A stretch of 19,395 bases of DNA from a virus (Duplodnaviria; Heunggongvirae; Uroviricota; Caudoviricetes): the IMG/VR virus record IMGVR_UViG_2541047813_000002. One strand, written 5' to 3'. The position numbers and the translations under genes were made by a program. Each line of letters starts with the position of its first letter. Within the stretch, counting starts at the first letter, position 1. The notes beneath the pieces were generated by a model, which saw only the letters and a program-made list of their open reading frames with translations, was not told the DNA's origin and searched no databases. Positions 1,331 to 19,395 of the stretch are shown here, in pieces.

Positions 1331-1432
1331 AACACAGCGATAGATTTGTGATTGGTCCGTTATTTTCTGACTGATATTTGAGCGTATAACAGTGTTATAC
1401 AGTGGTATACTGTATGGATATTACTCACTGAT

Positions 1433-1873: not shown

Positions 1874-1902
1874 TTGATCAGTGTATAAATGATATTTATC
1901 GC

Positions 1903-4102: not shown

Positions 4103-4120
4103 CCATCCATGGCTAACCAG

Positions 4121-6226
4121 TTATTGAGCTTCTTTTTGTGATGCCTGTGCGACTCTGGTGAGCGATTGTGTGACCGTACTGATCGCTCTGTCATATGCTG
4201 TGCTACCTTTTGGCGTATTTGCCAGACGTAACAAGGCATTTCGTATAACAGGGCTTTCGTATGCCTTCGCTGCTCCGCCTACGGCACCAGCAGCAGGAAC
4301 AACAAACGCAGCCGTTTTTAGCATCCCCGCTAATACTGCTGCGTTTATGATGCCACCACCAACTAACAATCCATAAAGCTGCTGACCATTTAAGTTTTGA
4401 ACGTTCGCTTTTGCCGCGTGTCTTGTATCGTTGAGGTATTTAATAACGCCGTCCAGTTCCTTTCCATGTACGCCTTTAAAGAAAGTTGCTGATTGCTTCC
4501 TGTTCCGGTGTAACGCATTAATAAACTTCTCAACACTGATATTTCCAGACGGATCAGTCGCCTTATCTACAGCATTCTGAACTATGGCTGCTCGTGCGTT
4601 TTGCCTACCATTGTCATCCAGAAGCCTGTAAAGCTGAGAACGTTCTGATGGGCTTTGGCTAAAAACGAGTTTTGTTACATCCTCAGGCGTGGCCTTGCCG
4701 CTGGCTATTGCCTTTTGAACGCGCGTTCTTCCCATCATGTCATTGAATTTAGACCATGAACGATCAACCCTTGCCATATTAATGGCTTCGTCTGCTCCAA
4801 GATTTTTGGCTACGGCTTTTTTCATATCCGCCGTATATGCCTTGTAGATAATATCGCTGGCTTTCTGGAGCGTATCTTTATCAACAGTGTCAGATGACGC
4901 CATAAATCGCTTTCGAAGATCGGTTCTGTTTTCCCTCGCCAGACGCAGGTCATTTGGTCCGCTGGTGATATCGTCTTTAAATTGCTGCAAGACTTTTACC
5001 GCGGCTCTATCCTGAGATTTGCCCGGGCGGCTTAACACGGCAATCTGATTGTCGATAGCTTTTACCGTGTTTGAGAGATCGACAGGGGTATCCCCCATAG
5101 CGTCAATTATGCGGTTATATCGCTTTCCTGCTGCCTCAATGAATTTTTGTTGCCCTTTAGTCGCAGATTCATAAAGCTGTTTATCAGAAATGCCACCCAG
5201 ACCATCGCTAAATGTTCTGACTAAATTTTCTCGTGCTTGTTGTTGATTCAGCCGATTCTTACCGGTTCCAAAAAAAGGAACTCTTTCGCCTAATGTCTGA
5301 GCCTGACTCTGCATAAAGGTTTTATCTTTCAGCATGTCACTGGTCATTAACGGCAGATTTCTTTCCGATGCAAAGTCGACAGCAGCCTTTGCTTCAGGCG
5401 ACATATCACCACGAACAGCCCTCGAAACCGCACTCGCTGTATTTTCCAGCCCCTTACCAATACCACCAATGCCAGCAGAAATTACCGTTTGTAACGGTTC
5501 AATATCTTCTCCACCAGCAAGGCTAGTGGCTCCCTGTAGTGCTAAATCTGTAGCTGCTGATTTTCCTATGGCACCAAGCACCGTTCCAGCCCTGCCAGCT
5601 GGTGTAAACGCCAACGCATTAGCAAGAAACGAAGTCAGGTCTTGCGGTGATAAACCCGGCTTGTTCAGGGCATAATCACCTGATGGCAGAGAAACGATAG
5701 TATTCCCCTTCTCATCCTGCCTTAATGTCGCCCCCATTCCCTGAAGAATCTTTTCCTGAGACGCGTCAGAGCCGAAAAGTTGAGACCATCCAGCCTTTAG
5801 GGCATCCATGCTTAGTGAGTTCAATTCTGGGGCAGAGGCGACATTTTGCAGTCTCTCCATCTCTGGAGTCATTCGGCTTTCGCCTGTTATAGCATCGCGC
5901 ATCGCAGCCCCAAGACTGGCTCCCTGTTCTGCTGAACGCTCAAGCCCCTCTCTTTGCTGAGTAGCTAACTTTGCATACCCTGACGCAAGAGAATTATCAG
6001 ATGATGTATGTTGAATATTTTGAGTTGCTGATTGGGATCGGTCTATTTCATTCGTTGATGGTAGTGGATAGGCAGCATAAAAAGCCTGCTTAGCCTGCTC
6101 TACACTTTCTCCGGCTTGCGGGGCAACGACTTCATTGAAGTATTGCTCCTGAGCCTGCGCTTTTTGTTCTGGTGCTAACGCCTGATACTGTGGAGAGGCG
6201 ATAACATCTTTCCATGCTTTAGCCAT
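4121..6226 (-). CDS. Large Q/A/G-rich protein (701 aa) with C-terminal glycine-zipper hydrophobic segment; phage ejection/DNA-transfer protein-like (P22 gp16-like by size and position)
   Basis: Long ORF; ATGA start/stop overlap with the upstream gene at 6226; C-terminal LLVGGGIINAAVLAGMLKTAAFVVPAAGAVGGAAKA. The family assignment is an inference, not a match. Confidence 0.85.
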   Translation of the reverse strand: MAKAWKDVIASPQYQALAPEQKAQAQEQYFNEVVAPQAGESVEQAKQAFYAAYPLPSTNEIDRSQSATQNIQHTSSDNSLASGYAKLATQQREGLERSAEQGASLGAAMRDAITGESRMTPEMERLQNVASAPELNSLSMDALKAGWSQLFGSDASQEKILQGMGATLRQDEKGNTIVSLPSGDYALNKPGLSPQDLTSFLANALAFTPAGRAGTVLGAIGKSAATDLALQGATSLAGGEDIEPLQTVISAGIGGIGKGLENTASAVSRAVRGDMSPEAKAAVDFASERNLPLMTSDMLKDKTFMQSQAQTLGERVPFFGTGKNRLNQQQARENLVRTFSDGLGGISDKQLYESATKGQQKFIEAAGKRYNRIIDAMGDTPVDLSNTVKAIDNQIAVLSRPGKSQDRAAVKVLQQFKDDITSGPNDLRLARENRTDLRKRFMASSDTVDKDTLQKASDIIYKAYTADMKKAVAKNLGADEAINMARVDRSWSKFNDMMGRTRVQKAIASGKATPEDVTKLVFSQSPSERSQLYRLLDDNGRQNARAAIVQNAVDKATDPSGNISVEKFINALHRNRKQSATFFKGVHGKELDGVIKYLNDTRHAAKANVQNLNGQQLYGLLVGGGIINAAVLAGMLKTAAFVVPAAGAVGGAAKAYESPVIRNALLRLANTPKGSTAYDRAISTVTQSLTRVAQASQKEAQ

Positions 6227-7359
6227 TAATCACCCCATAGTGAAGAAAAGTTACTGCTGGCTGCTGGCTGTGATACCTGCTCAGATTGCGGCAATGTCTG
6301 CGACGAAGAAGAAGTTCCTCTGTCAACTGCTGAAATAACCCGCAAAGCATCATAAGCTCGACCAGAAGCAGCTTTCAGCGAATTGAACTGGTTTTCCATC
6401 TTCCGGCGCTTGGTATCAATGGTTTTTGTGGAGTCGCCAGGCTGAGGGAAATACATTTGATAATATTTTGACATTTCAGCAGGTGCGATAGCTGCCCCTG
6501 TTTCCTGACGGAGTATTGCCATTATTGCGTCATTAGCATTAACAACGTATTGCTGCTCTGTTGGGCTGAGCGTTAAGTTAGCCAGCGTCCCATTACCCAA
6601 AGCATTATTAATGATCGCCACTCGCTGTGGGCTAAGCTGGTCTCTCAGTGTATCTATTGAATCAAGAGCATCCCTAACCCTGTATGCAAATCCAGCAGCT
6701 TTTTTAGCCCCTTCTGGCGACTTTTCCATGATCTTTTGGGCTGTTGGCAAAGCTATTGGACGAAACCCATCTCCAGATATTGGCTGGTTTAGTTTTCCCT
6801 GCTCTTCACTTCCGTCTGTGTAGTATTTTGTGACAGTGCCATCATCGTTTTCTCTAACACTCATTAATTTTTTGGCGTTTGTATTAATTCCAGCCGCTGC
6901 CGCAAATGCCGCCGCCCCCTCTGGATCCGCCTTTAACATTTGAGCGTACTGATTGTAATTCTGCATTGCTGCTGTTGGTGCATATGCTGACGTTAACGCA
7001 TTTGCTCGGCTAATATCCTGCCCTCTCGCCTGAAGTGCTTCGCCAGCCTGATTGCTGCGGATTGTTTCTGCCAACTTGCCACGCTCAATATCCCGACCTT
7101 CCATTTGATCTTTGATATCGAAATACTTCTCATGACCGAGAGAAAACAGTGCCATACTACCAGCAAGCCGCTGGAATCCCTGTGGATCATTAACATGCAT
7201 TTCGGCAACAGACTCAGGAGAAATTCCCAAGCGACGCATTTCATCTTCGTTATCTGCTATGAATTTTCCAAATGCCCCAGTTCCGAGCGAAGATGCGATT
7301 TGAGCACTAGTCGCAAGATGACCAATAGAATTTCTCTGGTCGTCATCAATAAAGCCCAT
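6226..7359 (-). CDS. C-terminal 377 codons of an apparently split ~470-aa gene (P22 gp20-like size)
   Basis: Reading frame stays open and protein-like upstream of the ATG back to a TGA at 7420-7422. No usable RBS before ATG 7359 (AAAGGG abuts the ATG). Confidence 0.75.
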   Translation of the reverse strand: MGFIDDDQRNSIGHLATSAQIASSLGTGAFGKFIADNEDEMRRLGISPESVAEMHVNDPQGFQRLAGSMALFSLGHEKYFDIKDQMEGRDIERGKLAETIRSNQAGEALQARGQDISRANALTSAYAPTAAMQNYNQYAQMLKADPEGAAAFAAAAGINTNAKKLMSVRENDDGTVTKYYTDGSEEQGKLNQPISGDGFRPIALPTAQKIMEKSPEGAKKAAGFAYRVRDALDSIDTLRDQLSPQRVAIINNALGNGTLANLTLSPTEQQYVVNANDAIMAILRQETGAAIAPAEMSKYYQMYFPQPGDSTKTIDTKRRKMENQFNSLKAASGRAYDALRVISAVDRGTSSSSQTLPQSEQVSQPAASSNFSSLWGD

Positions 7360-7634
7360 CCCTTTCTGAACGCTTTCAAATTCTTCTGGATACTCAGCAT
7401 TTTGTTTCTGTCTCCAGACTCAAAAGCCCCGGCATATGCTTTCTGAAACTCTGCTTTACGCTGTTGTTGACGTGCCTGCTGATTAATCTCAGCAACGCCT
7501 CTTAGCCCCTGTAGCGCCATTAAACCTACGTTTGGCTGCTGCTGATACTGCACAGGCTGAGGAACGGAAGAACGAGGAGCATTATCATTTTGCGGTGCCA
7601 TGCTAGGCAGCCCGCCAAGTTGCCATGTCGCCAT
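7257..7634 (-). CDS. N-terminal fragment of the same split gene; translationally coupled to the upstream 225-aa gene (TAATG); protein-like only for the first ~80 codons
   Basis: ATG 7634 overlaps the stop of the 225-aa gene. Sequence is Q-rich like its neighbours until about 7400, then becomes junk-like (ALLMTTREILLVILRLV) where the 377-codon frame takes over. Confidence 0.5.
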   Translation of the reverse strand: MATWQLGGLPSMAPQNDNAPRSSVPQPVQYQQQPNVGLMALQGLRGVAEINQQARQQQRKAEFQKAYAGAFESGDRNKMLSIQKNLKAFRKGWALLMTTREILLVILRLVLKSHLRSELGHLENS

Positions 7635-8311
7635 TAGAATCCAAGCCCCCCAACAAGACCAATAAGCCCACCACCAATAGCCCCGGCGACATTACCTATA
7701 CCCGGAACAACGGAACCAAGTTGCGCACCCGCTAAAGCGCCTGATGCCGCCCCACCAATACCACGCGCAAGACTGGATGGCTGCTGCGCCTGACCTGCAC
7801 GAATAGCGCCAAGCCCCTGCAAGAGTTGCCCGGTATTATTGGCGTAGTTTTGCCCTGCTGTTGCCTGCCCTGATGCCGCATTCATCCCGACATTTAGCAG
7901 GTTTCCATAATTTTGCATTTGCCCACTAAGCCAATTGTTATAAAGCATGGGCGCAATGGAAGATAACTGGTTACTGGTAGCTGTTGAGCCAAGCCCCCCG
8001 GTAGCTTCTGCTGAGACAAGGTTCTGATAACGGGCCTGATCTGCCTGTGTTTTATATAAACCAGAACCAAAGAAATCATTCGCGGCTTTATTCTGCCCTT
8101 CCAGAGTCATCAGTCCTTGTAGTTGTTGTAAAGCAGGCAATCCGACTTCTGCATACGGCTTGAGATTATTCATCACCGTATTCCACTGCTCGCGCTGCAA
8201 ATCAATTGCCTGCTGCTGGGCCTTCGCCTGAGCTTTAGAGGCACCACCATCACCGCCTTTTTCGTATACGGCACGATTGAGATGTTTATGAGCTATATGG
8301 GTAATTAACAT
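7634..8311 (-). CDS. Q/G-rich protein (225 aa) with C-terminal glycine-zipper; ejection-protein-like (P22 gp7-like size)
   Basis: ATG 8311 with AAGGAA upstream; overlaps the stop of the 153-aa gene. Contains EKGGDGGASKAQAKAQQQ and ends GIGNVAGAIGGGLIGLVGGLGF. Confidence 0.85.
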   Translation of the reverse strand: MLITHIAHKHLNRAVYEKGGDGGASKAQAKAQQQAIDLQREQWNTVMNNLKPYAEVGLPALQQLQGLMTLEGQNKAANDFFGSGLYKTQADQARYQNLVSAEATGGLGSTATSNQLSSIAPMLYNNWLSGQMQNYGNLLNVGMNAASGQATAGQNYANNTGQLLQGLGAIRAGQAQQPSSLARGIGGAASGALAGAQLGSVVPGIGNVAGAIGGGLIGLVGGLGF

Positions 8312-8766
8312 TCGCTGAATTCCTTATATTGTTGCCGAGTTAACTGATAAAGCGTTACGCCGACGGGTTTACCACATCTGATATAAGCATCATCAAGGTG
8401 ACCAACACGGGTAGCGCCAAGCAAACGGATAATTGCCCGTCCGTATTTGGTGGTGTCAGGAACCATGGTAATGCTGTTAAGGAATGGTGAGTTTTCGAGA
8501 AGCCATTTGCAGAATAATCGATGCCCTTGCAGTGCATATTCACCACGGAATCCGGGGTCGTACACCGCATGGCATTCAACAATGCTATGCCAGAAGTTAC
8601 GCACTTCATGAACGCCAGCCAGCACCAATCCTTCGTAGATACCGAGATATACCGCATCAGGCTTGATGTAGTACGTGTGCCCCGGCTCAACAATATTTTC
8701 GGTATTGCCAGGCTCGTTAAGAAAGGCCTGTAATCGCACAGGGTTATCAATAAATTTTAGTTCCAT
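8305..8766 (-). CDS. Hypothetical protein (153 aa), first large gene of the operon
   Basis: ATG start; ORF; stop overlaps the start of the next gene. Confidence 0.8.
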   Translation of the reverse strand: MELKFIDNPVRLQAFLNEPGNTENIVEPGHTYYIKPDAVYLGIYEGLVLAGVHEVRNFWHSIVECHAVYDPGFRGEYALQGHRLFCKWLLENSPFLNSITMVPDTTKYGRAIIRLLGATRVGHLDDAYIRCGKPVGVTLYQLTRQQYKEFSEC

Positions 8767-8782
8767 GCGATGCCATCCATTT

Positions 8783-8944
8783 TCACATACAGCCTGCCAG
8801 CGCCTTATCTATTAACCCTCGTGCAATTTCATGCAGAGTTGGCGCTACTCCAATTCCTGATTTTTTACGCTGCTCTTCCTGAATTTTCTTTATCGCTTCC
8901 ATTTGCTTCTCACTTATCAATACCGGCTTTACTGAAATAGCCAT
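8783..8944 (-). CDS. Small RHH-like (ribbon-helix-helix) protein, 53 aa, below the ORF-track size cutoff
   Basis: ATG 8944 preceded by AAGGGGG (4-nt spacer). MAISVKPVLISEKQMEAIKKIQEEQRKKSGIGVAPTLHEIARGLIDKALAGCM has a beta-strand-helix-helix pattern. Ends 16 nt before the 153-aa gene. Confidence 0.45.
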   Translation of the reverse strand: MAISVKPVLISEKQMEAIKKIQEEQRKKSGIGVAPTLHEIARGLIDKALAGCM

Positions 8945-9039
8945 AACGCCCCCTTAGAACTGTATAAAACAACAGTTATTATAGTTTCATAAATCGCAAT
9001 ATTCATCATCGTGATTGCAAAATATGAAACAAATAGCAC

Positions 9040-9071
9040 AAAAAAATGCCACCGCTCAGTAGCTGGTGGCA
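9040..9071 (-). terminator. Rho-independent terminator for the primase transcript
   Basis: On the minus strand: TGCCACC-11 nt-GGTGGCA hairpin followed by TTTTTTT (plus-strand A-run 9040-9046). Confidence 0.55.
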
Positions 9072-9265
9072 TCGTTCTGTGTGTCAGGTTTTGACAGGTT
9101 TTTTATGGACTCTAAAAACTATATTTATGGTGTCGCATTACTCTTCACGGAAGGCGCTTTCCAGTTCTGCCCTTGCTTCTGGCTCCATTGGTAATTTGAT
9201 TCGCGATCAGCTATGCGGATGGTTTGCTGAACAGGCATAACAACTTCTCAGGGGCTGTTTTCTGA

Positions 9266-9342
9266 ACTACGAAAATTTCGTAGTGCTCACTTTCAAAAAC
9301 GTCACGCCCTTGTACACAGGATTTTACGAAAGTCTCGTAAAA
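9266..9342. promoter_or_regulatory. Two palindromes sharing TACGAAA half-sites within the origin region
   Basis: ACTACGAAAATTTCGTAGT (9266-9284, perfect 9-bp arms) and TTTTACG-7nt-CGTAAAA (9322-9342). Confidence 0.35.
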
Positions 9343-9392
9343 CACTCTCTGATGCCAGCCAGGTGTTGTGCGCATCAATTCAGTCACATTGT

Positions 9393-9504
9393 GTTGGTTC
9401 AAAATACCGTGTTGTTGGTTCAGTGTTGGTTCAATAAAAAGAATAAAATCCTTATAAAACAACACTCTTTACAAATTGAACCAACTGAACCAACTGAACC
9501 AACG
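9393..9504. repeat. Iteron module B (putative ori): GTTGGTTCA at 9393, 9414, 9425; AT-rich spacer; three contiguous TGAACCAAC at 9478-9504
   Basis: Read directly; lies between the primase stop (9529) and the terminator; reverse complement of module A. Confidence 0.75.
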
Positions 9505-9528
9505 CCTTTTCTACGCACATGAAGAAGC

Positions 9529-12288
9529 TCATTCTTCAGATGAGTTGTAATCTCCTGGCTGGTAATTGAGTACATAAACGTTTATTTGTCGTCCCTGAAT
9601 ACGTGGTGATTTTCTTTGGTATCCACGACCGCTGTTTGGTGGGGTTAGCATCCCGGCTTTTTTCAACACTTCAGCAAACTGTTTTGCGTTGAAACCACAT
9701 GCGATCTCCTTTTCAAATGTGGCCGGGAATGTGTAGAAAATCATTGGGCTTTCGTCATGTTCTCCACGCTGACGGTATCCGGCTAAATCTTTGATGGGCA
9801 AATCTGCCGGGCTGTATGGAAATGGTGCAAAACGGCTAAGCCCATAGGCATTAAGAAATGCCTCCGTTTGTTCAATAATCTGCTGATGTTCTTTGTTACC
9901 TGTGCCGAACTCGCGCAACCATGCGTTATAGCTGTGCTGTATCGCATCACGGCATGTCTGAGCATCCCAGCCTGTTACAACCTCGCCTAACAGCAATGCG
10001 GCCTCCAGAATGGCAAATCGCGCGGCTACACGGTGAACCTGCTCACCATAATCGGATGGGATCAGACTTCTCCATCTGCTTTCGCAGTCACGAACAGTTT
10101 TAATTGCCTGTTGCTGGTGGTCTGCCAGCCATTTAATCCACTCACGCCCGGCTGCGCCGTGGTGATGCTGGTAAGCGTCTTTCAGTGCGTCTGCGTGCTG
10201 TTTTCCGTTCTGGTAATCGTGAAAGCGTACTGCTTTACTCAACGGAATATTCAGCAGTCGCACCAGTTGTCCGGCTTTGGTTTTTCGCCCGGAAGTAGCG
10301 ATAAATGTTTCTAAATCCATTTCTCCGGTGCTGATTGCCACTGTACGCCAGCGTTTTAGATCCCGGTTTCCACCATCTTTAGCGCCTTGCAGTTTCCCTA
10401 CACCGTTAAATAACGCATAGGCAGACTGTGAAACACTGACAGGATCAGCGCCCTGACCAACTTCATCAAGCGGCATTAGTCCGTCATTGTGGGCGGCGGC
10501 TTCATTTGCCAGCCCCAGCGCGGTTCCGTACCACGTCAGCCGCAGTAAATCAGGGTTGCCGTATAAGCTGCTCGCCACGTTTGCCGTGGTGGTCTTACCT
10601 GCGCTCGACTGCTCATAGAAATGAATGCCGAACCCGTCAGCGCCCACCAGCCCAATCAATGGCGCTGCCAGTGCTGCGCCGATCCCGGTCATCATTGAAT
10701 AGTTACCAAAGGCCAGACGCGCCACGTTATCACGCCAGCTTTTCGCGCTCCCTGAGACGGTATATCCGGCTGCGGCTGAGCTTCTCCCGCTGAACAGCAC
10801 AGGATTTTCAGGTGTTCCGATGATTTCCCCATCAGGCATGATGTACGCTCCGCATTGCCAGCCAGTGGCATGAGCAACACGCCACAATTCACGAGAGCCA
10901 CTGCGTTGTAGCCAGTCTGCCAGTATTGCTCTGAGGCTGCTTTTGGTCGTGACATTTACCCCACCAGCTTTAAGTGTGCGCCATCCTTCACGTTCACCAA
11001 TATCAGCCAGTGGAATGGCAGCGGTTGTCGGCGTTTCAGAACCAAACGACAGCCAGCGAAGAATGAGATACTGGTCTTTATCGTCTCTGCCAGTACCGAT
11101 AACGCTTAACGGCGAACATAACCAGCTTTCGTTATTGATGATTTCTCCACTCTGGCTGTCAGCTCTCGGAGATACCCAATAAATACCATCCTCTCGGCTT
11201 TCTATTCTTGGTTTCAGTGGGTCGGTATCCATAACCTTAAAATCGCTTCCCTCAATGGTCTGTGGCTCCTGTTTCACGCCATTACCCTGTGGTTGGTACA
11301 TTGACTTATTGAACGTTTCTGTGGCGCATTTAATGCCGTGTTTTTGGTGGTAATCATTCCAGTCTGCTTTGTGATCTGTCGGGGGTAATGCCACCCATCC
11401 AGAAACAGATAAAGCTGCTTTTTCTGCTGCTATTCTCCCCGTGTTTTGTCTTCCTTCGCTGTGGTCGTTATCCGCAGCAATGATGATTTGTGCTGAAGGA
11501 TATTTATCCCGCAGTACCTGGGCGACATATAACAGGTTCCCGGCATCAATCGCCGCCACTGTCAGCGCCTCTGGACGAATTAAATGGGCAGATAATGCCG
11601 TTGCCAGCCCTTCTGCGATTAAGATGCTCTGTGTTGTTTCTGGTGCGTTTATGGCGTGATATGCTCCCCGTTTTGCTGAACCTGTCAGGAGTCTTTTTTC
11701 ACCATGTGAGGTAATAGTCTGTGCTGCTGTGACTGCGCCGGATTTATCCACCAGCGCCAGCAACAGAGATCCATCGGGCAACACGGGGAATGTAAAATCA
11801 CCTACCCCTTTCGCAACCAGATAATCAGATTTACCGTTTACAGCCTTTCTGCGCATGTCATCAAACTGACGGGAAAACGTATCCCGTCTTTGTTGTTCGT
11901 CCTTCTCTGCCCTTTTCAGGCGCTCCTGTTCGCGTCGCTGGCGCTCGGTTTCCAGTTGTTCCCGTTTCTGGCTGGTGGCTTCTGGTGTTTCCGTTGTCCG
12001 GTAATCAATACCCAGAACATCAGCGGCAAGAAGCGCCGCCTCTGTTGTGTCGCAGTTATTTACGCGTTTAATTAAATCCAGCCCATCACCAGCGCCGCAC
12101 TGATTACAGATGAAGCTACCGCGCCCGTTGTCATCGAACCGGAATCGATCTTTGCCCCCACATGCAGGGCAGGGAGCATGACGGCGCGGAGAGTCAGGGA
12201 CATTTATGTTCAGGCAGCCCAGCACATGAGGCCAGTTGTTTTCAGACGCACTGATAACCTGACGGATAAGATCAATGTTTCGCATCAC
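9529..12288 (-). CDS. Primase with zinc-ribbon and Toprim domains plus a P-loop NTPase-like domain (P4 alpha-like); probable start ATG at 12285
   Basis: CPACGGKDRFRF...FICNQCG zinc ribbon; Toprim acidic motif IIIAADNDH; P-loop-like SSAGKTT; 919-aa ORF. Confidence 0.95.
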   Translation of the reverse strand: MMRNIDLIRQVISASENNWPHVLGCLNINVPDSPRRHAPCPACGGKDRFRFDDNGRGSFICNQCGAGDGLDLIKRVNNCDTTEAALLAADVLGIDYRTTETPEATSQKREQLETERQRREQERLKRAEKDEQQRRDTFSRQFDDMRRKAVNGKSDYLVAKGVGDFTFPVLPDGSLLLALVDKSGAVTAAQTITSHGEKRLLTGSAKRGAYHAINAPETTQSILIAEGLATALSAHLIRPEALTVAAIDAGNLLYVAQVLRDKYPSAQIIIAADNDHSEGRQNTGRIAAEKAALSVSGWVALPPTDHKADWNDYHQKHGIKCATETFNKSMYQPQGNGVKQEPQTIEGSDFKVMDTDPLKPRIESREDGIYWVSPRADSQSGEIINNESWLCSPLSVIGTGRDDKDQYLILRWLSFGSETPTTAAIPLADIGEREGWRTLKAGGVNVTTKSSLRAILADWLQRSGSRELWRVAHATGWQCGAYIMPDGEIIGTPENPVLFSGRSSAAAGYTVSGSAKSWRDNVARLAFGNYSMMTGIGAALAAPLIGLVGADGFGIHFYEQSSAGKTTTANVASSLYGNPDLLRLTWYGTALGLANEAAAHNDGLMPLDEVGQGADPVSVSQSAYALFNGVGKLQGAKDGGNRDLKRWRTVAISTGEMDLETFIATSGRKTKAGQLVRLLNIPLSKAVRFHDYQNGKQHADALKDAYQHHHGAAGREWIKWLADHQQQAIKTVRDCESRWRSLIPSDYGEQVHRVAARFAILEAALLLGEVVTGWDAQTCRDAIQHSYNAWLREFGTGNKEHQQIIEQTEAFLNAYGLSRFAPFPYSPADLPIKDLAGYRQRGEHDESPMIFYTFPATFEKEIACGFNAKQFAEVLKKAGMLTPPNSGRGYQRKSPRIQGRQINVYVLNYQPGDYNSSEE

Positions 12289-12643
12289 CGTACCCCACGT
12301 GGTCTATAGCGTTTGCGATATGGCTAACCAGCATCTGCCACTTGGTTATTCCGTAATCAGTCAGCATGCCATCATTGTTTAGCCACATATCAAATTCAGC
12401 GGTTGTCGCAAGTTTCCACTTATCGCCGTGGACAGTCCTCATTGCTGGGTACATGAATGCGCAAATCAGATCACAAACATCTGACGGCTTCAGAGATGTA
12501 GTAATGGTGCGTCCCTCTGGCGTCTGAATTGCCATTTTCTCTTCACCAGTAGAATGAAGGTTATGAATCCACACAGCGCCAGCAATCTTTGCCACCTGCT
12601 CTCCGATTGCGGAGCTAAGCGCCATTTCTGCATTTTCACGCAT
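12272..12643 (-). CDS. Hypothetical protein (123 aa); paralog of the upstream 113-aa gene
   Basis: GGGAGG sits 6 nt upstream of ATG 12643; start overlaps upstream stop (ATGCGTGA). Shares NDGMLTDYGITKWQML with KDGLTDVGREIWQSM in the neighbour. Confidence 0.75.
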   Translation of the reverse strand: MRENAEMALSSAIGEQVAKIAGAVWIHNLHSTGEEKMAIQTPEGRTITTSLKPSDVCDLICAFMYPAMRTVHGDKWKLATTAEFDMWLNNDGMLTDYGITKWQMLVSHIANAIDHVGYGDAKH

Positions 12644-12977
12644 GAGAACCTCCCGCTACAGTTGCGCCCATGTCATTAACCATGCTTTGCCATATCTCAC
12701 GCCCGACGTCAGTCAATCCGTCCTTAGTGACGCAACGATCAAGAAGCTCTATCCCCACGGTTTCCCACTGCGGGTAGAACACTTTCATGGCTGCCAGTGT
12801 GTAGCTATCGATCAGGCTGCGAACGCCTTTTACTCCATTGACGATTTCCACACGGACGGCCTCGCCGTCCGCATCAACCATGAAATAGTCCCCGCCGCTG
12901 GTGGAGGTAATGTGGTTATACAGTGCCGACGCATACTTATTTGCCAGCGCATTTAGTCGGAAATTTTTAGTAATCAT
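12636..12977 (-). CDS. Hypothetical protein (113 aa); paralog of the 123-aa gene
   Basis: ATG 12977; ORF; shared motif with the downstream gene. Confidence 0.75.
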   Translation of the reverse strand: MITKNFRLNALANKYASALYNHITSTSGGDYFMVDADGEAVRVEIVNGVKGVRSLIDSYTLAAMKVFYPQWETVGIELLDRCVTKDGLTDVGREIWQSMVNDMGATVAGGSHA

Positions 12978-12987
12978 GGCTCCATCC

Positions 12988-13590
12988 TCAGTGCGTCACT
13001 GGTTCCGCTGGCATGCCGTTTTCATTCAGTTCAGCTATAAAGCTGTTGTGAAGTTCAGCAAGCGTTTCACGACCAAATGGAGTCAGTGCTCCTTGTTCCA
13101 CATCCATCATGGCTCTGTAGAAAATGATGGCGCGTTCTGTGCCAGACTCGATGCCAAAACGTTCTATCATCGCGCCCTCAATGTTGTTTGCCATAGCGAG
13201 GCGCTCTGCTACTGGATACAGCGGCATGGCGACGATGCCGTTGGAATAAACAGCCACTTCGGAAGGATTGCCAGTATCATCAATGATGCTGACAGTGCCG
13301 TTTTCCTCTCTCATTTCCAGCATGAATACTGTTGCGATCAGCCATCTCCACATAATGACGTTATGCTGTGATGTGTAATCGAAATATCCCTGGTTGCCGC
13401 CATCGGCAATAGCGAGATGTATTGACATACCTTCATCTGGTTTATCGTCATAATCCCCGGCATCCAGACGATTTACGGCATCAATATATGAGACGGCCTC
13501 AACGCGTTCTGTCATGCCATCGTTGCTGCGGTACATGATGTTTACGCCGTCAGGCGTTGCTTCTGCATGGAAAGTTAAGAAATTATTCAT
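12988..13590 (-). CDS. Hypothetical protein (200 aa); start reassigned to ATG 13590
   Basis: GAGG RBS, and ATGAATAA overlap with the stop of the upstream 73-aa gene. The ORF-track extension to 13695 overlaps that gene out of frame. Confidence 0.7.
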   Translation of the reverse strand: MNNFLTFHAEATPDGVNIMYRSNDGMTERVEAVSYIDAVNRLDAGDYDDKPDEGMSIHLAIADGGNQGYFDYTSQHNVIMWRWLIATVFMLEMREENGTVSIIDDTGNPSEVAVYSNGIVAMPLYPVAERLAMANNIEGAMIERFGIESGTERAIIFYRAMMDVEQGALTPFGRETLAELHNSFIAELNENGMPAEPVTH

Positions 13591-13804
13591 GTTTCGCCTC
13601 GCCTGAATGATTCTGTAACTCATATTTGCCCAACAATTCGTCCGCTTCCTGAATAGCTTCTGGTACGCCATTGAGCAGTGACATAACCGCGCCAATCATT
13701 AACTTGTCTCTGTTGCTGGGGCTGGCCCCTTCAAGCCAGAACCCTAAAACAGTCTGAACCTGTTCGATGCGACATTGCGCTTCAATGAGCTGGATGTTGG
13801 TCAT
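13583..13804 (-). CDS. Hypothetical small protein (73 aa)
   Basis: ATGA overlap with upstream gene; part of the coupled operon. Confidence 0.65.
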   Translation of the reverse strand: MTNIQLIEAQCRIEQVQTVLGFWLEGASPSNRDKLMIGAVMSLLNGVPEAIQEADELLGKYELQNHSGEAKHE

Positions 13805-14064
13805 TTCGCACTCTCCACATCGATTAAACCGATATCTATCAGGGAGGTAACTTTTTGTAGCCAGCTATTGATTACTGTCGCCTGTTCCCCTCCCACCGAG
13901 GGAACAATCTCATTCATCACATGAACCAGACCTGTGCGCGCTCTGGTAAGCCGTTCAGTCGCGCAATCTGCGGGAGTGAATGTGTCTGGATATGGCTCTT
14001 CGCGCCCCAGCAATGATTCAATTTCCAGCTCACACGGATGACGATAAATTAAGTTGATATTCAT
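13801..14064 (-). CDS. Hypothetical small protein (87 aa)
   Basis: ATGA overlap with upstream gene; part of the coupled operon. Confidence 0.65.
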   Translation of the reverse strand: MNINLIYRHPCELEIESLLGREEPYPDTFTPADCATERLTRARTGLVHVMNEIVPSVGGEQATVINSWLQKVTSLIDIGLIDVESAK

Positions 14065-14255
14065 TTTTCACCCCCAAGAATTACCAGCTCTGCACGGGCA
14101 TCGTTAACCAAAGATGAGCACGCTTTAATCGCATCCACGACATCAGCAGCGTCCATTTCTTCAGCCGAAAGACTGACAGCAACCAGGACAGCCGCTGCTT
14201 GCTCGATTAATTGAAGTGCGGACGTAAGGCGAGGGGTATTAATTGAGTTATTCAT
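14061..14255 (-). CDS. Hypothetical small protein (64 aa; [10 protein letters not shown]...)
   Basis: ATG 14255 with GGGGG upstream; ATGAATAA overlap with the stop at 14248-14250. Confidence 0.6.
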   Translation of the reverse strand: MNNSINTPRLTSALQLIEQAAAVLVAVSLSAEEMDAADVVDAIKACSSLVNDARAELVILGGEK

Positions 14256-14466
14256 TGGTTGCCCCCGTTTTTCCTGGCATTTCGCCACCTTCCAGCAGGA
14301 AATGAACGTCGCGAACGGCGAGGTCCAATATCGCGAGTAACGCCTTCAGTCTTTCGTCTCGTGAGGGAGAGTTGCTCACCAGAATGTCGTTAATCACTTC
14401 TGTCAGTGTGATGATCTGGCTTGTGCGTTCGAGGGGGTCCATATGCACATCGTAGGTTTTAATCAT
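14248..14466 (-). CDS. Hypothetical small protein (72 aa; [17 protein letters not shown]...)
   Basis: GGAGGTGG sits 6 nt upstream of ATG 14466; ATGATTAA overlap with the stop of another frame. In-frame with the long ORF 14248-15315. Confidence 0.5.
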   Translation of the reverse strand: MIKTYDVHMDPLERTSQIITLTEVINDILVSNSPSRDERLKALLAILDLAVRDVHFLLEGGEMPGKTGATNE

Positions 14467-15315
14467 GTGCCACCTCCATGCGGATACGACCAGCAAAAAA
14501 GCAGACGTGATCGCGCACCAGAGAACGGCGAGCATCGCGTTCAGACTCGGCAGCAATATGATGAATTTTGGCGGTAATTGTCGGGCAATCGCGGCGAACT
14601 GCGGCGATAATCCAGATAAATTGCGTTTTTTGGGTAGGGGTAGTAGCCAGCATGTGGCAGCCTCCTTGTACTGGGAATTCTTCCCACCACCGGAGCTGCG
14701 AAACTCGCTGGTGGTGGACTGAACAGAGTTCGCAGTACCGGCGTACAAGGAAACCGGCCAGCCTTTCGGCTGCCCTGTCCAGCCCACCATAATTTTGCAA
14801 GCGACGCGGATTATAACCACATCACTGAAAAAAGTGTGAGTCTGGCTAACGGCACAAAAAAAGACGCTCGGCGCGTCATGTGTCGCCTCGTACATTTCCG
14901 GGCTGCGAAACCCGGCACCCGTTTTATGAGGTGCCTTATAACCATAAACCGTGTTGCCGCATAACGGCAAGCTCTTTTTTATGGACTCCGAAAACTCACT
15001 ATTGGAAGAACCAGAAGCACAGTACATCGTGCTCATTTCGTTAACGTCACGCGCGTGGACGAATGTTTTTGTGGAGTCACTACACGAGCGGAAGACATCA
15101 TCTACGACCAGAAATTTTCTGGCGCAGCCGCTGACCTTCTCAATGCTAATATCATCGCCCGAGATTTCTGGTATGGTTAAGGCATCCGTTCCGACCACCA
15201 GCAAATGATAAACTTTGCTTGTATCTGCTGTATTAATGCCTGACTTTGCCGTCATATTGCTGGATTTTGGCGACATGCCAGCCAGTGAAAATGTCTTCTT
15301 CTGGACGGTTAGCAT
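14248..15315 (-). CDS. Long ORF (355 codons) anchored by a well-supported start at 15315; the 3' extent is doubtful and it may be chimeric. The N-terminal ~150 codons are protein-like.
   Basis: GGAGGTT sits 6 nt upstream of ATG 15315, which overlaps the upstream stop (ATGCTAA). The distal half is W/P/C-rich and overlaps two RBS-supported small ORFs. Confidence 0.4.
14459..14653 (-). CDS. Possible small protein (64 aa; [11 protein letters not shown]...), or part of a structured non-coding region
   Basis: AAGGAGG sits 7 nt upstream of ATG 14653; stop coupled to the next start. The region also has open frames on several other strands and frames and nested inverted repeats. Confidence 0.35.
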   Translation of the reverse strand: MLATTPTQKTQFIWIIAAVRRDCPTITAKIHHIAAESERDARRSLVRDHVCFFAGRIRMEVAHD

Positions 15316-15491
15316 TTGTTAACCTCCGCGAACTCCTTCATGAAACGTGCCAGCGGTTGTACGCATGGCGATTGATACCCGTCGCGATAAAACGTCACTC
15401 GGTTGTGAGACACGCTTTCGACAGTAACGAGTGCTCCGTGGGCATCTTTGTAGCGTTTTTGTGGTTGTGGTGTTCCTGTTGGCTTAGACAT
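15309..15491 (-). CDS. Hypothetical small protein (60 aa; MSKPTGTPQPQKRYKDAHG...)
   Basis: GGAGGTGG sits 5 nt upstream of ATG 15491, which overlaps the stop of the Rha gene. The longer 89-codon ORF would overlap Rha by 95 nt. Confidence 0.55.
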   Translation of the reverse strand: MSKPTGTPQPQKRYKDAHGALVTVESVSHNRVTFYRDGYQSPCVQPLARFMKEFAEVNKC

Positions 15492-16317
15492 TGACCACCT
15501 CCAGACGCTTGGCGAGCCAGCGTTGCGACAGGCGGGTGAGTTCTCCTTTACGCTGCTCATATTCCATGCCCATATCAATTAACGTGATATTGGTGCTTTC
15601 GAGATATGAGAGGTGCTCAAGCTGTTCTGCGTTCATATGGTCGCGAGGTTCGCCAGAATAGCCATTTATCCGCGCCCACTGCTTAGCAGTTAGCCCACCA
15701 AGAACGATACGAGAAATCATATTGCTCTCGTTTGTGTAGTGGTGTTGCTGCGTCGTTTTCCCCTGCTCGGCACGGGCCATATTCAGCGCATCGCACATTG
15801 GCTTAAAGTTGTTTGCGGCACTGATACGGGCTTTTAGCTGGCGACGATAGCGGGCGGCGATTTCAGGCACGCTACGCTGTAATTCTTCCTCGCACTGGAT
15901 GAAATAACGGCGGATAGCGCGACCCTGATCATTGCGTTCGATCATTGCCAGTTCTTTCGCCATTCCGACACTTAACAGATAGTCTTTGCCGGGTCTGCCA
16001 GACTGCTTAATCTTGCTGTAAGCCGCGCCATTCGGGCTTTTCCCCAAATTTGGGGAAATTGTTTTATGGACTGAGTAATCGTGCCCAATGGTGAAGTCAT
16101 ATTCAGAGATGCGATCAGTGATCCATGTAGAGAAGTCTTTTCCCACGCCCAACGCTTTGTGTAACGCTTTTGCGCTAACAATATTGGTTTCACGCCCACC
16201 GATATGACCAGGAATAACCGGGACAATTGCGGCAAATTCATTACCGTTAATTGTGCCCAGAGAGGCGTTCAGATGAGGGGCAGCCTCAGAAATTAATCTG
16301 CTTTTTTCGATGTTCAT
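15484..16317 (-). CDS. Phage antirepressor-family protein (Rha-like N-terminal domain plus KilA-C/ANT-like C-terminal domain), 277 aa
   Basis: GGAGA RBS; motifs DYLLSVGMAKELAMIERNDQGRAIRRYFIQCEEEL and an N-terminal Rha-like segment. Confidence 0.85.
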   Translation of the reverse strand: MNIEKSRLISEAAPHLNASLGTINGNEFAAIVPVIPGHIGGRETNIVSAKALHKALGVGKDFSTWITDRISEYDFTIGHDYSVHKTISPNLGKSPNGAAYSKIKQSGRPGKDYLLSVGMAKELAMIERNDQGRAIRRYFIQCEEELQRSVPEIAARYRRQLKARISAANNFKPMCDALNMARAEQGKTTQQHHYTNESNMISRIVLGGLTAKQWARINGYSGEPRDHMNAEQLEHLSYLESTNITLIDMGMEYEQRKGELTRLSQRWLAKRLEVVNV

Positions 16318-16329
16318 TTTCAGTCTCCG

Positions 16330-16761
16330 TTAGGCGGCGTTAAACGCGTCCGGGTAGAGTTTCAGAATGTCGGCAATTTCCTGCTGAGAAAGTCCGTTGT
16401 GATCATTTATGTTCGCAAGATGGTTAACATGAGTGATCACTTTCAGAACATCACCACGGCAGGAGAAACGGTAGCGAAGGTGTGTTCCGATACCATCAGG
16501 ATTCTTTTCGTCGATACGCTCCAGAGTGATTCCAAGCTGGCGTTCTAACTCTGTTGCATAGTTACGACCAGAAGACAGACGGCAGTAGCGAAGAATGTCA
16601 TTTTCTGTCCATCCCTCTATACCAGTACGCAGCATATAGACTCGGGCGCGATGCTTTTTCGGTGTGCGCTTTGGTGCTTGAAGGGATTTTGTCAGGGGCG
16701 TAACATCAGATACGCGAATATCTGAATTAGCCGCCTGTAATGGGCGGTTTTTCTTATTCAT
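16330..16761 (-). CDS. Hypothetical basic protein (143 aa) coupled to alpA
   Basis: TAATG overlap with the alpA stop; ORF. Confidence 0.75.
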   Translation of the reverse strand: MNKKNRPLQAANSDIRVSDVTPLTKSLQAPKRTPKKHRARVYMLRTGIEGWTENDILRYCRLSSGRNYATELERQLGITLERIDEKNPDGIGTHLRYRFSCRGDVLKVITHVNHLANINDHNGLSQQEIADILKLYPDAFNAA

Positions 16762-16958
16762 TACGCTACCTCGCCACGCGACTCAGCGATGCGCTGATTA
16801 ATCCATTCTTCAATTTCACTTTCAATAAACGCAATTGATCGGCTTCCAATCTTTACAGATTGAGGGAATCGCTGTTCTTTGATGAGCCGATAAATCCACG
16901 CTTTGCTGTAACCAGTACGGCGTTGAACCTCAGAAAGACGAATAAATGATTGAGACAT
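16761..16958 (-). CDS. alpA: AlpA-family HTH transcriptional regulator/excisionase-like protein (65 aa)
   Basis: AGGAG sits 6 nt upstream of ATG; LSEVQRRTGYSKAWIYRLIKEQRFPQSVKIGSRSIAFIESEIEEWI is typical of AlpA. Confidence 0.9.
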   Translation of the reverse strand: MSQSFIRLSEVQRRTGYSKAWIYRLIKEQRFPQSVKIGSRSIAFIESEIEEWINQRIAESRGEVA

Positions 16959-17040
16959 GTTTACTCCTATATTCTGTCATCTTCTTTAATGGACATCAGT
17001 AGACAGAAAGGAGATTAAACAAACCGGTGAATGGGTGATA

Positions 17041-17111
17041 GCGGATAAAAATAAAATATTTTTTTGAGAAGATTATCCGCTTTGAAATACACAGTAGCGT
17101 ATTCAAAGCGG
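17041..17111. promoter_or_regulatory. Nested palindromes upstream of alpA; putative operator
   Basis: CCGCTTTGAA (17077-17086) and TTCAAAGCGG (17102-17111) form a perfect 10-bp inverted repeat; GCGGATAA (17041-17048) and TTATCCGC (17073-17080) form another. Confidence 0.4.
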
Positions 17112-17155
17112 AAATCGCGAAATTTACTTAAAACGTTTACGTAGGATTTTGCTTG

Positions 17156-18037
17156 CTATAAATCTCTACTCATTAAATCAGATATTTTTATCAAGCTCAT
17201 TTCTCTGTCTTTGTTTACATAAAGCTGAAGCAAGCGGGTGTATCTCTCGCTTATGGATTCAAGTGCAAAAGGCTTTATTGATTCCTTAATAGCCTGCGTA
17301 TCTTTCGGATCATCACTAAAAACCAAGGCAGAAATCATCGGATTGCTCACTTCCTTACCTGACTTCTCACCCCAAATCAGCAGATCAACAATAGGTATCA
17401 CTCTATTAGATATCAACTTCTGGAGGGTCTTTAATCCAATCCTTTTCTGAGCGACATGCTCTCTCTCTGGTACTTTTAACTCTTTTCGCCATAGAGGTAG
17501 AAGGTGAGTCAGGCTGGTAATAATTTCGTCATCAGTGGCGTCATCTAAATCTATAGAAACGAGTATGCTGTTAGGGGAACAATTACTTAGGTTTCCAGTA
17601 ACACTCGCAAGCATAGCGTTTGCCTTGAGGTAGCAATCCTCTTCGTCTCTTTTAAAAAAGCCTTGATCTATCGATGAGAAAGAGTACATGGCCAGCTCTG
17701 AAAATGTTACTGGACTAACCCCCATAGCTGAAGATAATGAGGGAAGATCATCGTACTCATTTCTTAATGATGGGGCTTCATCATTTACTTTGCGAATAAA
17801 TTCTTCAACCTCTTCCTCTTCTTCATTGAGAATGGTTAGGTTAGGATCGCCCGAAAAAATCCTTTCATATTTTATATCGTACTCTTCTTTGAATATAGCA
17901 GTGTCATCTTTTGCATGACGCAATAAAAAATCGCGCCACTCTAATTCTTGAATCAAGTCCGGCAAGGTTAAATCAATTAAAAATTCATAATTACTAATAT
18001 CAAACCATGCTAAATCTTGTTTTTTGGCTCTCACCAT
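17156..18037 (-). CDS. AT-rich orphan protein (293 aa) with an acidic patch (NEEEEEVEEF), between int and alpA; function unknown
   Basis: ATG 18037; long ORF in a markedly AT-rich segment bounded by GC-richer flanks. Confidence 0.8.
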   Translation of the reverse strand: MVRAKKQDLAWFDISNYEFLIDLTLPDLIQELEWRDFLLRHAKDDTAIFKEEYDIKYERIFSGDPNLTILNEEEEEVEEFIRKVNDEAPSLRNEYDDLPSLSSAMGVSPVTFSELAMYSFSSIDQGFFKRDEEDCYLKANAMLASVTGNLSNCSPNSILVSIDLDDATDDEIITSLTHLLPLWRKELKVPEREHVAQKRIGLKTLQKLISNRVIPIVDLLIWGEKSGKEVSNPMISALVFSDDPKDTQAIKESIKPFALESISERYTRLLQLYVNKDREMSLIKISDLMSRDL

Positions 18038-18180
18038 ACGCCACCCCGCGCCCCCTAATTCTGACGGCTATGCCAGCCCGTAGGGGTGTACGGGTTTTCG
18101 GGGATCAGCCTAGACATAGCCTATTCTTTGTTCGTCTACATAAGTCTACTACCATTGCTTAACACTGTCTATTCATACAG

Positions 18181-19395
18181 TTAAGCTCGTTTCCCAAACG
18201 AACCATGAACAACGTTCTCCTCCTTCTCCAGCGCATCCATATAGTCGGCATACCATTGAAGCATCTCCCGCCGTCCATCCAGATATTGCGCATGGTTGTA
18301 TGTGCCACGAATTGAGTTCTTATCAACGTGAGCGAGCTGCGTTTCTATCCACGCGGTGTTATAGCCCTGCTCATGCAAAATCGTGCTCATAGTGTGTCGG
18401 AACCCATGACCAGTTACACGTCCAGCGTAGCCAATGCGCTTAAACACTTGGTTTATGCTGGCCTCACTCATTGTTTTCCTTGGATCATTGCGCCCGGGAA
18501 ACATAAGAGGGTAATTGCCTGTTATTTCTCTAATCTTCCCAATAAGCGAAAGAGCCTGCTCAGACAATGGCACAATATGAGGCCGCCGCATTTTCATACG
18601 TGAAGCGGGTATCTCCCAGATAGCCTTGTTGAAATCAATTTCATCCCATAATGCGCCACGTAGTTCGCCAGTCCGCAAGCCGGTGATAATCAGTAGACGA
18701 GCCGCCATAACAACCAATGCGCTTCCTGAGTAACTGGACAATGCCTTGAAAAAATCAGGTAATTCTTTAGCTGTAAGGAAAGGGTAATGATTAGATTCAT
18801 GGCCTTGCATCGCGCTAGTAAGGTCTGGTGCAGGGTTATACTCTGCGCGACCAGTGACTATTGCATAGCGGAAAACTTCCCCGCACCGTTGCCTCACTTT
18901 TTTGGCTTTTTCTGTCGCACCGCGCCCCTCGATGCGCCGCAGCACATTCAGAAGTTCAAGTGGTTTGATTTCGGCGATTGGTTTTTTGCCAATGTAAGGG
19001 AACACATCTTTGTTGAAGGCTTCGAGGATGTCTGAAGCATAACCAGCAGACCATTTTTTTAATTTGCTGCTGTGCCACTCAAGGGCAATATCTTTGAAGG
19101 TGTTGTTTAACTGCGTTTCCCGGGCAATCTTTTCCTCTCGTTTCGCTTCCATCGGATCGATACCACCAGCGATACCTCTTTTCGCATCTTCACGTTTTGC
19201 CCGAGCATCGGCTAGAGTAACCTCAGGATACACACCTAGTGCCAATAGCTTCTCTTTACCAGCTACACGATATTTAAGTCGCCAGTATTTACCTCCATTA
19301 GGTTTTACCAAGAGATACAAACCGCCACCATCGGCCAGCTTGTAAGCCTTCTCTTTTGGCTTGGCTGTGTCTATTTGACGGGCATTGAGTTTCAC
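18181..19395 (-). CDS. int: Tyrosine integrase, P4-type (404 aa); apparent GTG start at the window edge
   Basis: Catalytic motifs HGFRHTMSTILHE (HxxR) and IRGTYNHAQY (Tyr nucleophile); N-terminal arm-binding domain. Confidence 0.95.
   Translation of the reverse strand: MKLNARQIDTAKPKEKAYKLADGGGLYLLVKPNGGKYWRLKYRVAGKEKLLALGVYPEVTLADARAKREDAKRGIAGGIDPMEAKREEKIARETQLNNTFKDIALEWHSSKLKKWSAGYASDILEAFNKDVFPYIGKKPIAEIKPLELLNVLRRIEGRGATEKAKKVRQRCGEVFRYAIVTGRAEYNPAPDLTSAMQGHESNHYPFLTAKELPDFFKALSSYSGSALVVMAARLLIITGLRTGELRGALWDEIDFNKAIWEIPASRMKMRRPHIVPLSEQALSLIGKIREITGNYPLMFPGRNDPRKTMSEASINQVFKRIGYAGRVTGHGFRHTMSTILHEQGYNTAWIETQLAHVDKNSIRGTYNHAQYLDGRREMLQWYADYMDALEKEENVVHGSFGKRA

Follow-up and report, generated by a model that had tools for sequence, protein, structure and literature searches.

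The gene at positions 17156-18037 of the window (the whole 19,395-nucleotide stretch of DNA analysed here) is a real, intact and conserved DUF6387 family gene, situated in an exchanged cassette between the integrase gene and alpA of an island that resembles the phage satellite EcCIMP1. The family is catalogued and has no characterised function; the window gene is a new member. Our best guess, a tentative one that we hold at somewhat less than an even chance, is that the DUF6387 protein modulates the AlpA excision/induction switch in the quiescent state of the element. The features of the window on which the argument draws are as follows.

18181-19395, minus strand: P4-type tyrosine integrase gene, int (PF13356, PF22022, PF00589), adjoining tRNA-Thr (thrW)
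18143-18171, minus strand: predicted sigma-70-like promoter, TAGACA-17-TAGACT, with 9/12 matches in a consensus scan, between the int stop and the leader
18053-18120, minus strand: int-alpA RNA motif (Rfam RF02996), putative 5' leader of the slot gene, scoring 46.7 bits (gathering score 35.8)
18041-18047, minus strand: Shine-Dalgarno-like GGGGTGG in the conserved leader tail (GAGGTGGCGTATG), kept even before unrelated ORFs
17156-18037, minus strand: DUF6387 family protein gene, one ORF with an ATG start, 293 aa
16959-17155, minus strand: AT-rich spacer between DUF6387 and alpA, 197 nt, GC 0.34, presumed alpA promoter region
16761-16958, minus strand: alpA, encoding an AlpA/Xis-type HTH protein (PF05930, E=9e-20)
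16950-18204, no strand assigned: 1,255-bp exchanged cassette, delimited by homology breakpoints against L002, L003 and EcCIMP1 (L051), with flanks 98% identical

The preliminary description had presented this gene as encoding an acidic protein of 293 aa between an integrase gene and alpA, and as an orphan with no recognisable motifs. The first part was borne out: there is a single minus-strand ORF, preceded 3-9 nt upstream of its ATG by the Shine-Dalgarno-like element, its product has a pI of 4.62 and a net charge of -20, and the neighbours are indeed the P4-type int and alpA. The second part did not hold. Residues 5-269 of the protein matched positions 6-256 of the 258 positions of the Pfam model DUF6387 (PF19924), a full-length match with 131.2 bits compared to the gathering threshold of 28.9 (E=6e-38). 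The protein also matched phrog_23422, and its RefSeq label is 'DUF6387 family protein'. A profile search among 1.8 billion representatives yielded 502 family clusters at 50% identity; nearly all cluster members are 250-330 aa long, a range that includes the window protein, and the homologs align from its residue 1. In an alignment of 80 DUF6387 sequences, the near-invariant residues were W11, F12, Y17, R35, D169, L180, R184, D218 and W222, all of which are present in the window protein. Family membership was thus given both by the HMM score and by the invariant residues together with the length, and the Pfam and PHROG matches along with the 502 clusters ruled out an orphan gene.

An AF2 model of the protein was produced with a pLDDT of 92.4, and no fold relative of this model was found in the PDB or among viral structures. 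Searches of PDB sequences with two profiles gave no match, and neither did an NCBIfam search with the protein. We did not find a confident predicted DUF6387 model without structural relatives described in the searchable literature. No HTH or other DNA-binding domain was detected in the protein. A known defence gene was rejected as an identity for DUF6387, as the PADLOC-DB 2.0 models gave 0 families at E<=0.1, and a membrane or Abi-type effector was rejected given that the protein has no hydrophobic segment (the maximum 19-aa hydropathy is 1.0). The charge statistics of the family (median pI 5.2, range from 4.4 to 9.4, 25% of members above 6) and the fold, for which no structural match was found, also led to the rejection of a DNA mimic of the ArdA/Ocr type. 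We observed a charge split within the family: the N-terminal and middle parts were negative in more than 80% of members, while the C-terminal part was positive in 79%.

The acidity of the protein (pI 4.6, with a family median of 5.2) bears on the idea that DUF6387 is an establishment or counter-defence factor, made early in a new cell and shielding the incoming DNA, for instance from restriction or other host defences. The location of the gene at the element's edge, beside int and the att site, would suit such a role, as would a plasmid-like context (L015/L016) and a degenerate copy next to a restriction-modification system (L036), both described below. We regard this role as improbable. Acidity is not a conserved property of the family, as the pI values above show; DNA mimics have a far higher charge density; the fold resembles neither ArdA nor Ocr nor any solved protein; and a family member was present on only 5 of 72,556 plasmids.

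The window is E. coli DNA with an island inserted at tRNA-Thr (thrW) adjoining proA, the tRNA gene itself being located just outside the window. The minus-strand gene order is int, DUF6387, alpA, a gene for a 143-aa protein, the AntA antirepressor gene and DUF4222, followed by a C4/isrK RNA region, a gene for a TOPRIM+DUF927 primase, DUF2824, genes for P22 gp7/gp20/gp16-like ejection proteins and cargo that includes AbiD. In related elements, AlpA is the master activator and RDF. The sequence features that characterise PICIs of the EcCIMP1 type were observed: int at a dedicated att site, alpA downstream, a primase module, and neither lysis nor capsid genes. Judged by its sequence, the window appears to carry a phage-inducible chromosomal island (PICI) of the EcCIMP1 family, that is, a phage satellite.

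The closest functional relative is EcCIMP1 of E. coli MP1, with which the window island shares the att site (tRNA-Thr/proA), the gene order, protein accessions and the presence of P22-type ejection-protein genes. The window was 98% identical to the MP1 chromosome over 7474-16949 and 18205-19395, i.e., across int and a stretch of 9.5 kb that runs from alpA to the ejection-protein genes; four blocks are replaced, including 16950-18204. The two islands differ in the cargo and ejection-protein blocks and in the gap between int and alpA, which in EcCIMP1 measures 427 bp and contains an alpA promoter responsive to the helper; DUF6387 and the int-alpA RNA are both missing from it. The P22-like helper phage Kapi1 excises, circularises and transduces EcCIMP1 (PMC11773190), in which alpA is the master regulator with a promoter region (-449..+50) induced by the helper (PMC11773190). 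Helper-phage induction, excision and packaging are known for EcCIMP1 with Kapi1 and are putative for the window island.

The breakpoints of the cassette fall inside the end of int and the start of alpA. It contains the last ~8 codons of int, the promoter, the leader RNA, DUF6387, the spacer and the first 3 codons of alpA, and therefore carries both intergenic regions and all the sequence upstream of alpA. In EcCIMP1 and several hundred other E. coli genomes, the cassette is replaced by 427-431 bp, or by ~650 bp with short repeats. The DUF6387 version of this slot was present in 84 of 5,426 E. coli genomes; 142 genomes carried the int-alpA leader, and in ~86 DUF6387 was located behind it. In E. 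coli islands the slot is occupied by DUF6387, by one of at least three unrelated hypothetical gene families, or is empty. The alternative genes code for a 265-aa acidic coiled-coil protein (in places split as 106+147 aa), a 251-aa coiled-coil protein and a ~310-337-aa protein. All of them are AT-rich compared to int, none matched Pfam or PADLOC, and none had an HMM match to DUF6387. A slot protein, E148, was considered as a remote DUF6387 homolog and rejected (hhalign probability 0.2%, no HMM match). The empty slot of E. coli CP131 (L003, ~3870-4140) is ~240 bp longer than that of W60/EcCIMP1; direct repeats of 26-28 bp account for the difference and may be iterons upstream of alpA to which a protein binds.

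Two points of the preliminary description agree with these observations, namely that the gene occupies a variable accessory-gene position and that it was separately acquired, here as part of a cassette replacing 427-431 bp between flanks 98% identical to EcCIMP1. Conservation of the gene in all related islands, which would have spoken against accessory status, was not seen; the closest relatives have no DUF6387. The hotspots of P4-like satellites and P2-like phages (PMC9122126) are similar in that variable genes adjoin the satellite integrase gene and conserved flanks permit exchange by recombination. On the other hand, those hotspots hold many recognisable defence systems, whereas the occupants of the window slot match no PADLOC model, and the window slot has one ancient, context-locked occupant family.

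The main rival to the proposed modulator is accessory cargo: DUF6387 would be a single-gene anti-phage, helper-interference or superinfection-exclusion protein made by the quiescent satellite in an exchange hotspot. We consider this possible rather than probable. Besides the variability of the slot behind one conserved leader and the lack of the gene in EcCIMP1, several facts agree with cargo. In a metagenomic locus (L028, 1548-2142), an inserted HigB/HigA-like toxin-antitoxin pair separates int from DUF6387; accessory genes of SaPIs are located between int and stl (PMC6092414); and EcCIMP1-type elements are reported to confer immunity phenotypes (PMC11773190). Neither DUF6387 nor the alternative slot genes matched PADLOC, however, no enzymatic or membrane feature was seen in DUF6387, and the recognisable defence gene of the element, AbiD, is situated at its opposite end. 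The earlier suggestion of an anti-phage gene thus found no support from PADLOC or from the layout of the element.

Base composition was informative on the same question. The GC content is 0.382 in the DUF6387 ORF and 0.340 in the spacer to alpA, compared to 0.466 for the whole window, 0.477 for int, 0.475 for the 143-aa protein gene, 0.495 for AntA and 0.475-0.51 for the downstream genes; in the int-proximal spacer it is 0.510. The preliminary description had spoken of an AT-rich segment with GC-rich flanks: the AT-richness is there, though moderate, and the flanks are ordinary for E. coli. We found that DUF6387 had a GC content ~10 points lower than that of the adjacent int in 14 of 14 independent loci, in contexts ranging from 36% to 59% GC. 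AT-richness is therefore a trait of the DUF6387 family whatever the GC content of the host, and not a mark of recent acquisition in the window island; its use as a sign of separate acquisition had to be dropped, and the argument for cargo loses this element too. We did not find the family-wide AT bias described in the searchable literature.

The int-alpA RNA motif originates from the screen of Weinberg et al. 2017 (PMC5737381). The window instance was assigned to RF02996 by its score, its location between int and alpA, and stem covariation (7 of 20 predicted pairs had compensatory changes); it stops 15 nt 5' of the DUF6387 ATG. Five further loci contained the motif above the gathering score.

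L005, 5917-5987: RF02996 instance
L006, 5917-5986: RF02996 instance
L007, 5918-5986: RF02996 instance
L017, 1502-1569: RF02996 instance
L021, 5988-6055, minus strand: RF02996 instance

In the first four of these (Yersinia, Providencia, Shimwellia and a distant family member), the motif lies 13-21 nt 5' of DUF6387, while in L021, as in L052-L054, other E. coli islands at thrW and tRNA-Gly sites, it precedes unrelated slot genes. The motif was absent from EcCIMP1 even at E<=1, and none was found at gathering score in the EARL islands discussed below. Both promoter hexamers are kept across genera in the leader alignment. The promoter, the stems, the Shine-Dalgarno sequence and the 'GTATG' start context are all retained while the downstream ORF differs. 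Rfam files RF02996 as an sRNA gene; every instance here, however, is located 13-21 nt before a start codon, after a conserved promoter, and has a tail that constitutes the RBS, so the RNA looks like the 5' leader of a swappable slot gene. This reading, which we did not find described in the searchable literature, gives the int-alpA RNA a concrete context. A role of the motif as the int terminator was judged unlikely, since the int stop and the motif are separated by the conserved promoter and the motif lacks a U-rich tail. The slot as a whole appears to be an expression platform, with a sigma-70-like promoter, the int-alpA leader RNA and a kept RBS/ATG, behind which AT-rich ORFs are exchanged. 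DUF6387 is its commonest and oldest occupant.

The context of DUF6387 was surveyed throughout the family at loci collected from cultured genomes, metagenomes, plasmid and phage collections and exact-protein look-ups; the metagenome loci were obtained with a subgroup alignment of DUF6387. An integrase gene on the same strand was found upstream of DUF6387 in 24 of 28 assessable independent loci. In 21 of 26 loci an AlpA/Xis-type gene was located at most 600 nt downstream, the Salmonella locus L049 being one further case. The host elements include primase-bearing PICIs (the window, L009, L017 and L049), a capsid-forming PICI (L018) and ROD21/EARL islands (L020, where the DUF6387 match had E=1e-52). 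In the EARL islands the integrase gene is at the far end, and DUF6387 nonetheless immediately precedes the AlpA-type RDF gene. The median pairwise identity was 28.5% for DUF6387, 28.2% for int and 30.6% for AlpA; the Spearman correlation of the DUF6387 divergence was 0.43 with int and 0.51 with AlpA, compared to 0.62 between int and alpA. Outside such islands the family is rare, with 1 match in phage genomes besides the few plasmid copies given above. It is common otherwise; for example, one Salmonella satellite carrying it was indexed in at least 1,000 assembly blocks.

The near-exclusive int/alpA context, together with a divergence as deep as that of int and alpA, argues that DUF6387 is not free cargo and that its function is tied to the int/alpA module. 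Defence genes, on the contrary, typically show high turnover and many contexts, which counts further against an anti-phage or exclusion role.

Exceptions to this context were one plasmid-like locus, one degenerate copy beside a restriction-modification system and an IS element (L036), and a small clade with another small downstream ORF. The only clearly non-island context (L015/L016, 2613-4875) combines a small ankyrin-repeat protein, DUF6387, an orphan D12 adenine methyltransferase and a TraW-like gene, a set reminiscent of conjugative leading regions. The locus L018 is the K. pneumoniae sequence pKp_Goe_795-4 (CP018459.1), a 16,971-bp circle deposited as a non-mobilisable plasmid. It carries genes for the small and large terminase, capsid, head-tail adaptor, int, DUF6387 (its start overlapping the int stop) and an AlpA-like protein, and by its gene content looks like an excised capsid-forming PICI caught as a circle. 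In the metagenomic locus L030 (3150-4810), two tandem DUF6387 paralogues are present between int and alpA.

Conservation of a DUF6387 gene next to the RDF gene of EARL islands is already in the literature (PMC10763509, PMC6035254); for PICIs and a capsid-forming PICI, we came across no description of this linkage in the searchable literature. The EARL '843-bp gene of unknown function' (KPNJ2_RS09320 in ICEKp258.2) is annotated as DUF6387 and belongs to the same Pfam family. Like the window gene, it is located directly upstream of an AlpA-type RDF gene on the same strand, the proteins being 278-293 aa long, and is itself uncharacterised. It differs in that its host is a mobilisable island rather than a phage satellite and in having no int-alpA leader RNA at gathering score. 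Its counterpart in ROD21 is probably SEN1999. The Salmonella protein P0022 was considered as SEN1999 and rejected, as it resides in a PICI-like satellite.

The near-obligate linkage to int and alpA could also be explained if DUF6387 were a co-factor of Int and/or of AlpA as the RDF, assisting or biasing integration versus excision at the att sites. The overlap of its start with the int stop in L018 is in line with this. In EARL islands DUF6387 flanks the att site, the neighbouring AlpA homolog SEN1998 binds both att regions (PMC8844411), and the EARL papers list the DUF6387 gene beside the excision/integration module (PMC10763509, PMC6035254). Still, we think such a role quite unlikely. EcCIMP1, whose int is 98% identical and whose alpA is similar, has no DUF6387 and still undergoes excision, circularisation and transfer; unrelated proteins replace DUF6387 behind the same leader; and the gap between int and DUF6387 is usually 90-330 nt, with DUF6387 having its own promoter.

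The region between DUF6387 and alpA bears on the proposed modulation of the AlpA switch. Its length was always ~75-220 nt and the two genes were never coupled, so alpA retains a separate control region. The window spacer contains a perfect 11-bp inverted repeat, TCCGCTTTGAA-N15-TTCAAAGCGGA (17076-17086 / 17102-17112), and a third half-site at 17040-17048; its RNA fold is strong (z=-4.6). No homology of the spacer to the EcCIMP1 alpA promoter was found upstream of 16949. The Salmonella satellite L049 has the core CGCTTTGAA at the equivalent position; the core was not found in Yersinia, and there was no further copy in the window. An operator conserved across genera was therefore rejected, given the poor conservation of the spacer, the sharing of the repeat with L049 and not with Yersinia, and a half-site that does not recur in the element. 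The alternative slot genes each have their own palindromes before alpA: ACCCTNAGGGT in 3-4 copies, ACCGCAATTGCGGT in 2 copies, and TTGACATGAC/GTCATGTCAA. As sequences, the repeats fit either cognate operators or private terminators or insulators. Three distant DUF6387 loci (L009 5958-5994, L010 2604-2636, L018 8689-8726) have an 11-13-bp inverted repeat whose 3' arm lies over the alpA Shine-Dalgarno sequence. Such a hairpin could block alpA translation from int/DUF6387 read-through transcripts; no equivalent was found in the window.

In the mechanism that we favour, DUF6387 would be expressed in the quiescent island from a promoter of its own and would act on the neighbouring AlpA switch, gating the firing of alpA and with it the timing of excision, replication and transfer. 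The C-terminal third (residues ~160-260), which is conserved and mildly basic, would be the part in contact with AlpA or with the alpA control region, and the variable acidic N-terminal two-thirds would receive a helper-phage or host signal. Since the cassette carries its own alpA upstream region, a swap of cassettes would be a swap of induction logic. A modulator of this kind is consistent with the lock to int and to AlpA/Xis-type genes, with the ancient residence seen in the similar identity medians of the three proteins, and with the near-absence of the family from phages and plasmids. The palindromes specific to the slot type (the core of the window repeat being shared with L049), the uncoupled alpA spacer and the conserved charge split point in the same direction. 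Further weight comes from two facts taken together: the cassette replaces the region that in EcCIMP1 was shown by experiment to be the helper-responsive alpA promoter (PMC11773190), and no repressor is known for Gram-negative PICIs (PMC6092414), nor is a sensor. Against a modulator stand the lack of a detectable DNA-binding domain in DUF6387, its colinearity with alpA, and its dispensability in the sister element EcCIMP1.

In position and logic, the proposed modulator would be a counterpart of the Stl/Rpr repressors of the Gram-positive PICIs (SaPIs). The latter also adjoin int directly before the excision/activation genes, and diverse, partly non-homologous occupants are found at that one position; expression in the quiescent state and induction coupled to a helper signal would be, by analogy, the further points in common. 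Compared to Stl, which has a recognisable N-terminal HTH and is divergently transcribed, DUF6387 has no detected HTH, is colinear with alpA and has a fold with no known relatives. DUF6387 does lie between int and alpA as expected of the Stl/Rpr type, while the slot-specific palindromes before alpA could be terminators. A repressor role for DUF6387 is put forward here by analogy and as a hypothesis only.

A wider version, which we consider doubtful, is that DUF6387 and the unrelated leader-borne genes make up a set of interchangeable sensor-regulators, Stl analogues built on new folds, that choose which helper or host signal fires AlpA, with the leader setting the level. If true, this set would be the missing 'repressor/sensor' layer of Gram-negative PICI induction, and helper specificity would be explained by cassette swapping. 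How AlpA is silenced, and how helpers or stress switch it on, in Gram-negative satellites and ROD21-like islands is stated explicitly to be unresolved in the literature (PMC6092414). The defined cassette, with its promoter, leader RNA, ORF and private alpA upstream region, offers a clean, testable handle on the gating of AlpA-controlled elements, and EcCIMP1 without DUF6387 and the window island with it form a natural isogenic pair with 98% identical flanks. If DUF6387 proved to be plain cargo, the gain would be modest: a further accessory family of uncharacterised function in the hotspot of a satellite.

The remainder of the window deserves a few remarks. A C4 antisense RNA (RF01695, 81 bits; 14707-14794, minus strand) and isrK (RF01394, 69 bits; 14857-14934, minus strand) are both located inside a 355-aa ORF (14248-15315) that RefSeq calls an 'ash family protein'. 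This stretch, situated downstream of the antA antirepressor gene, is an immunity-RNA region of the P1/P4 type, and the ORF annotation is therefore probably spurious or over-extended.

The P22-type DNA-ejection genes and DUF2824 occupy 4121-8766 on the minus strand, with the gp7-like gene at 7634-8311, the gp20-like gene, and the gp16-like gene at 4121-6226; the block 3678-7473 is unlike EcCIMP1. The gp20-like gene consists of two overlapping ORFs (7257-7634 and 6226-7359), which match the N-terminal and the C-terminal half of PF16928, respectively, a pattern suggestive of either a frameshift or an error in the assembly. AbiD is a 340-aa Abi_2/AbiD protein (1903-2925, minus strand; Pfam 2e-52, PADLOC AbiD 8e-58); this protein, the recognisable anti-phage cargo of the satellite at the end opposite the integrase gene, is encoded in a block (1332-3192) absent from EcCIMP1. 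Positions 1-481 share 99.6% identity with the truncated 'Arm DNA-binding domain' pseudo-integrase gene that adjoins EcCIMP1 in MP1, and 85% with the 5' end of int in the satellite itself. They are a remnant integrase gene of the adjacent MarR/Vat island and mark the far boundary of the satellite.
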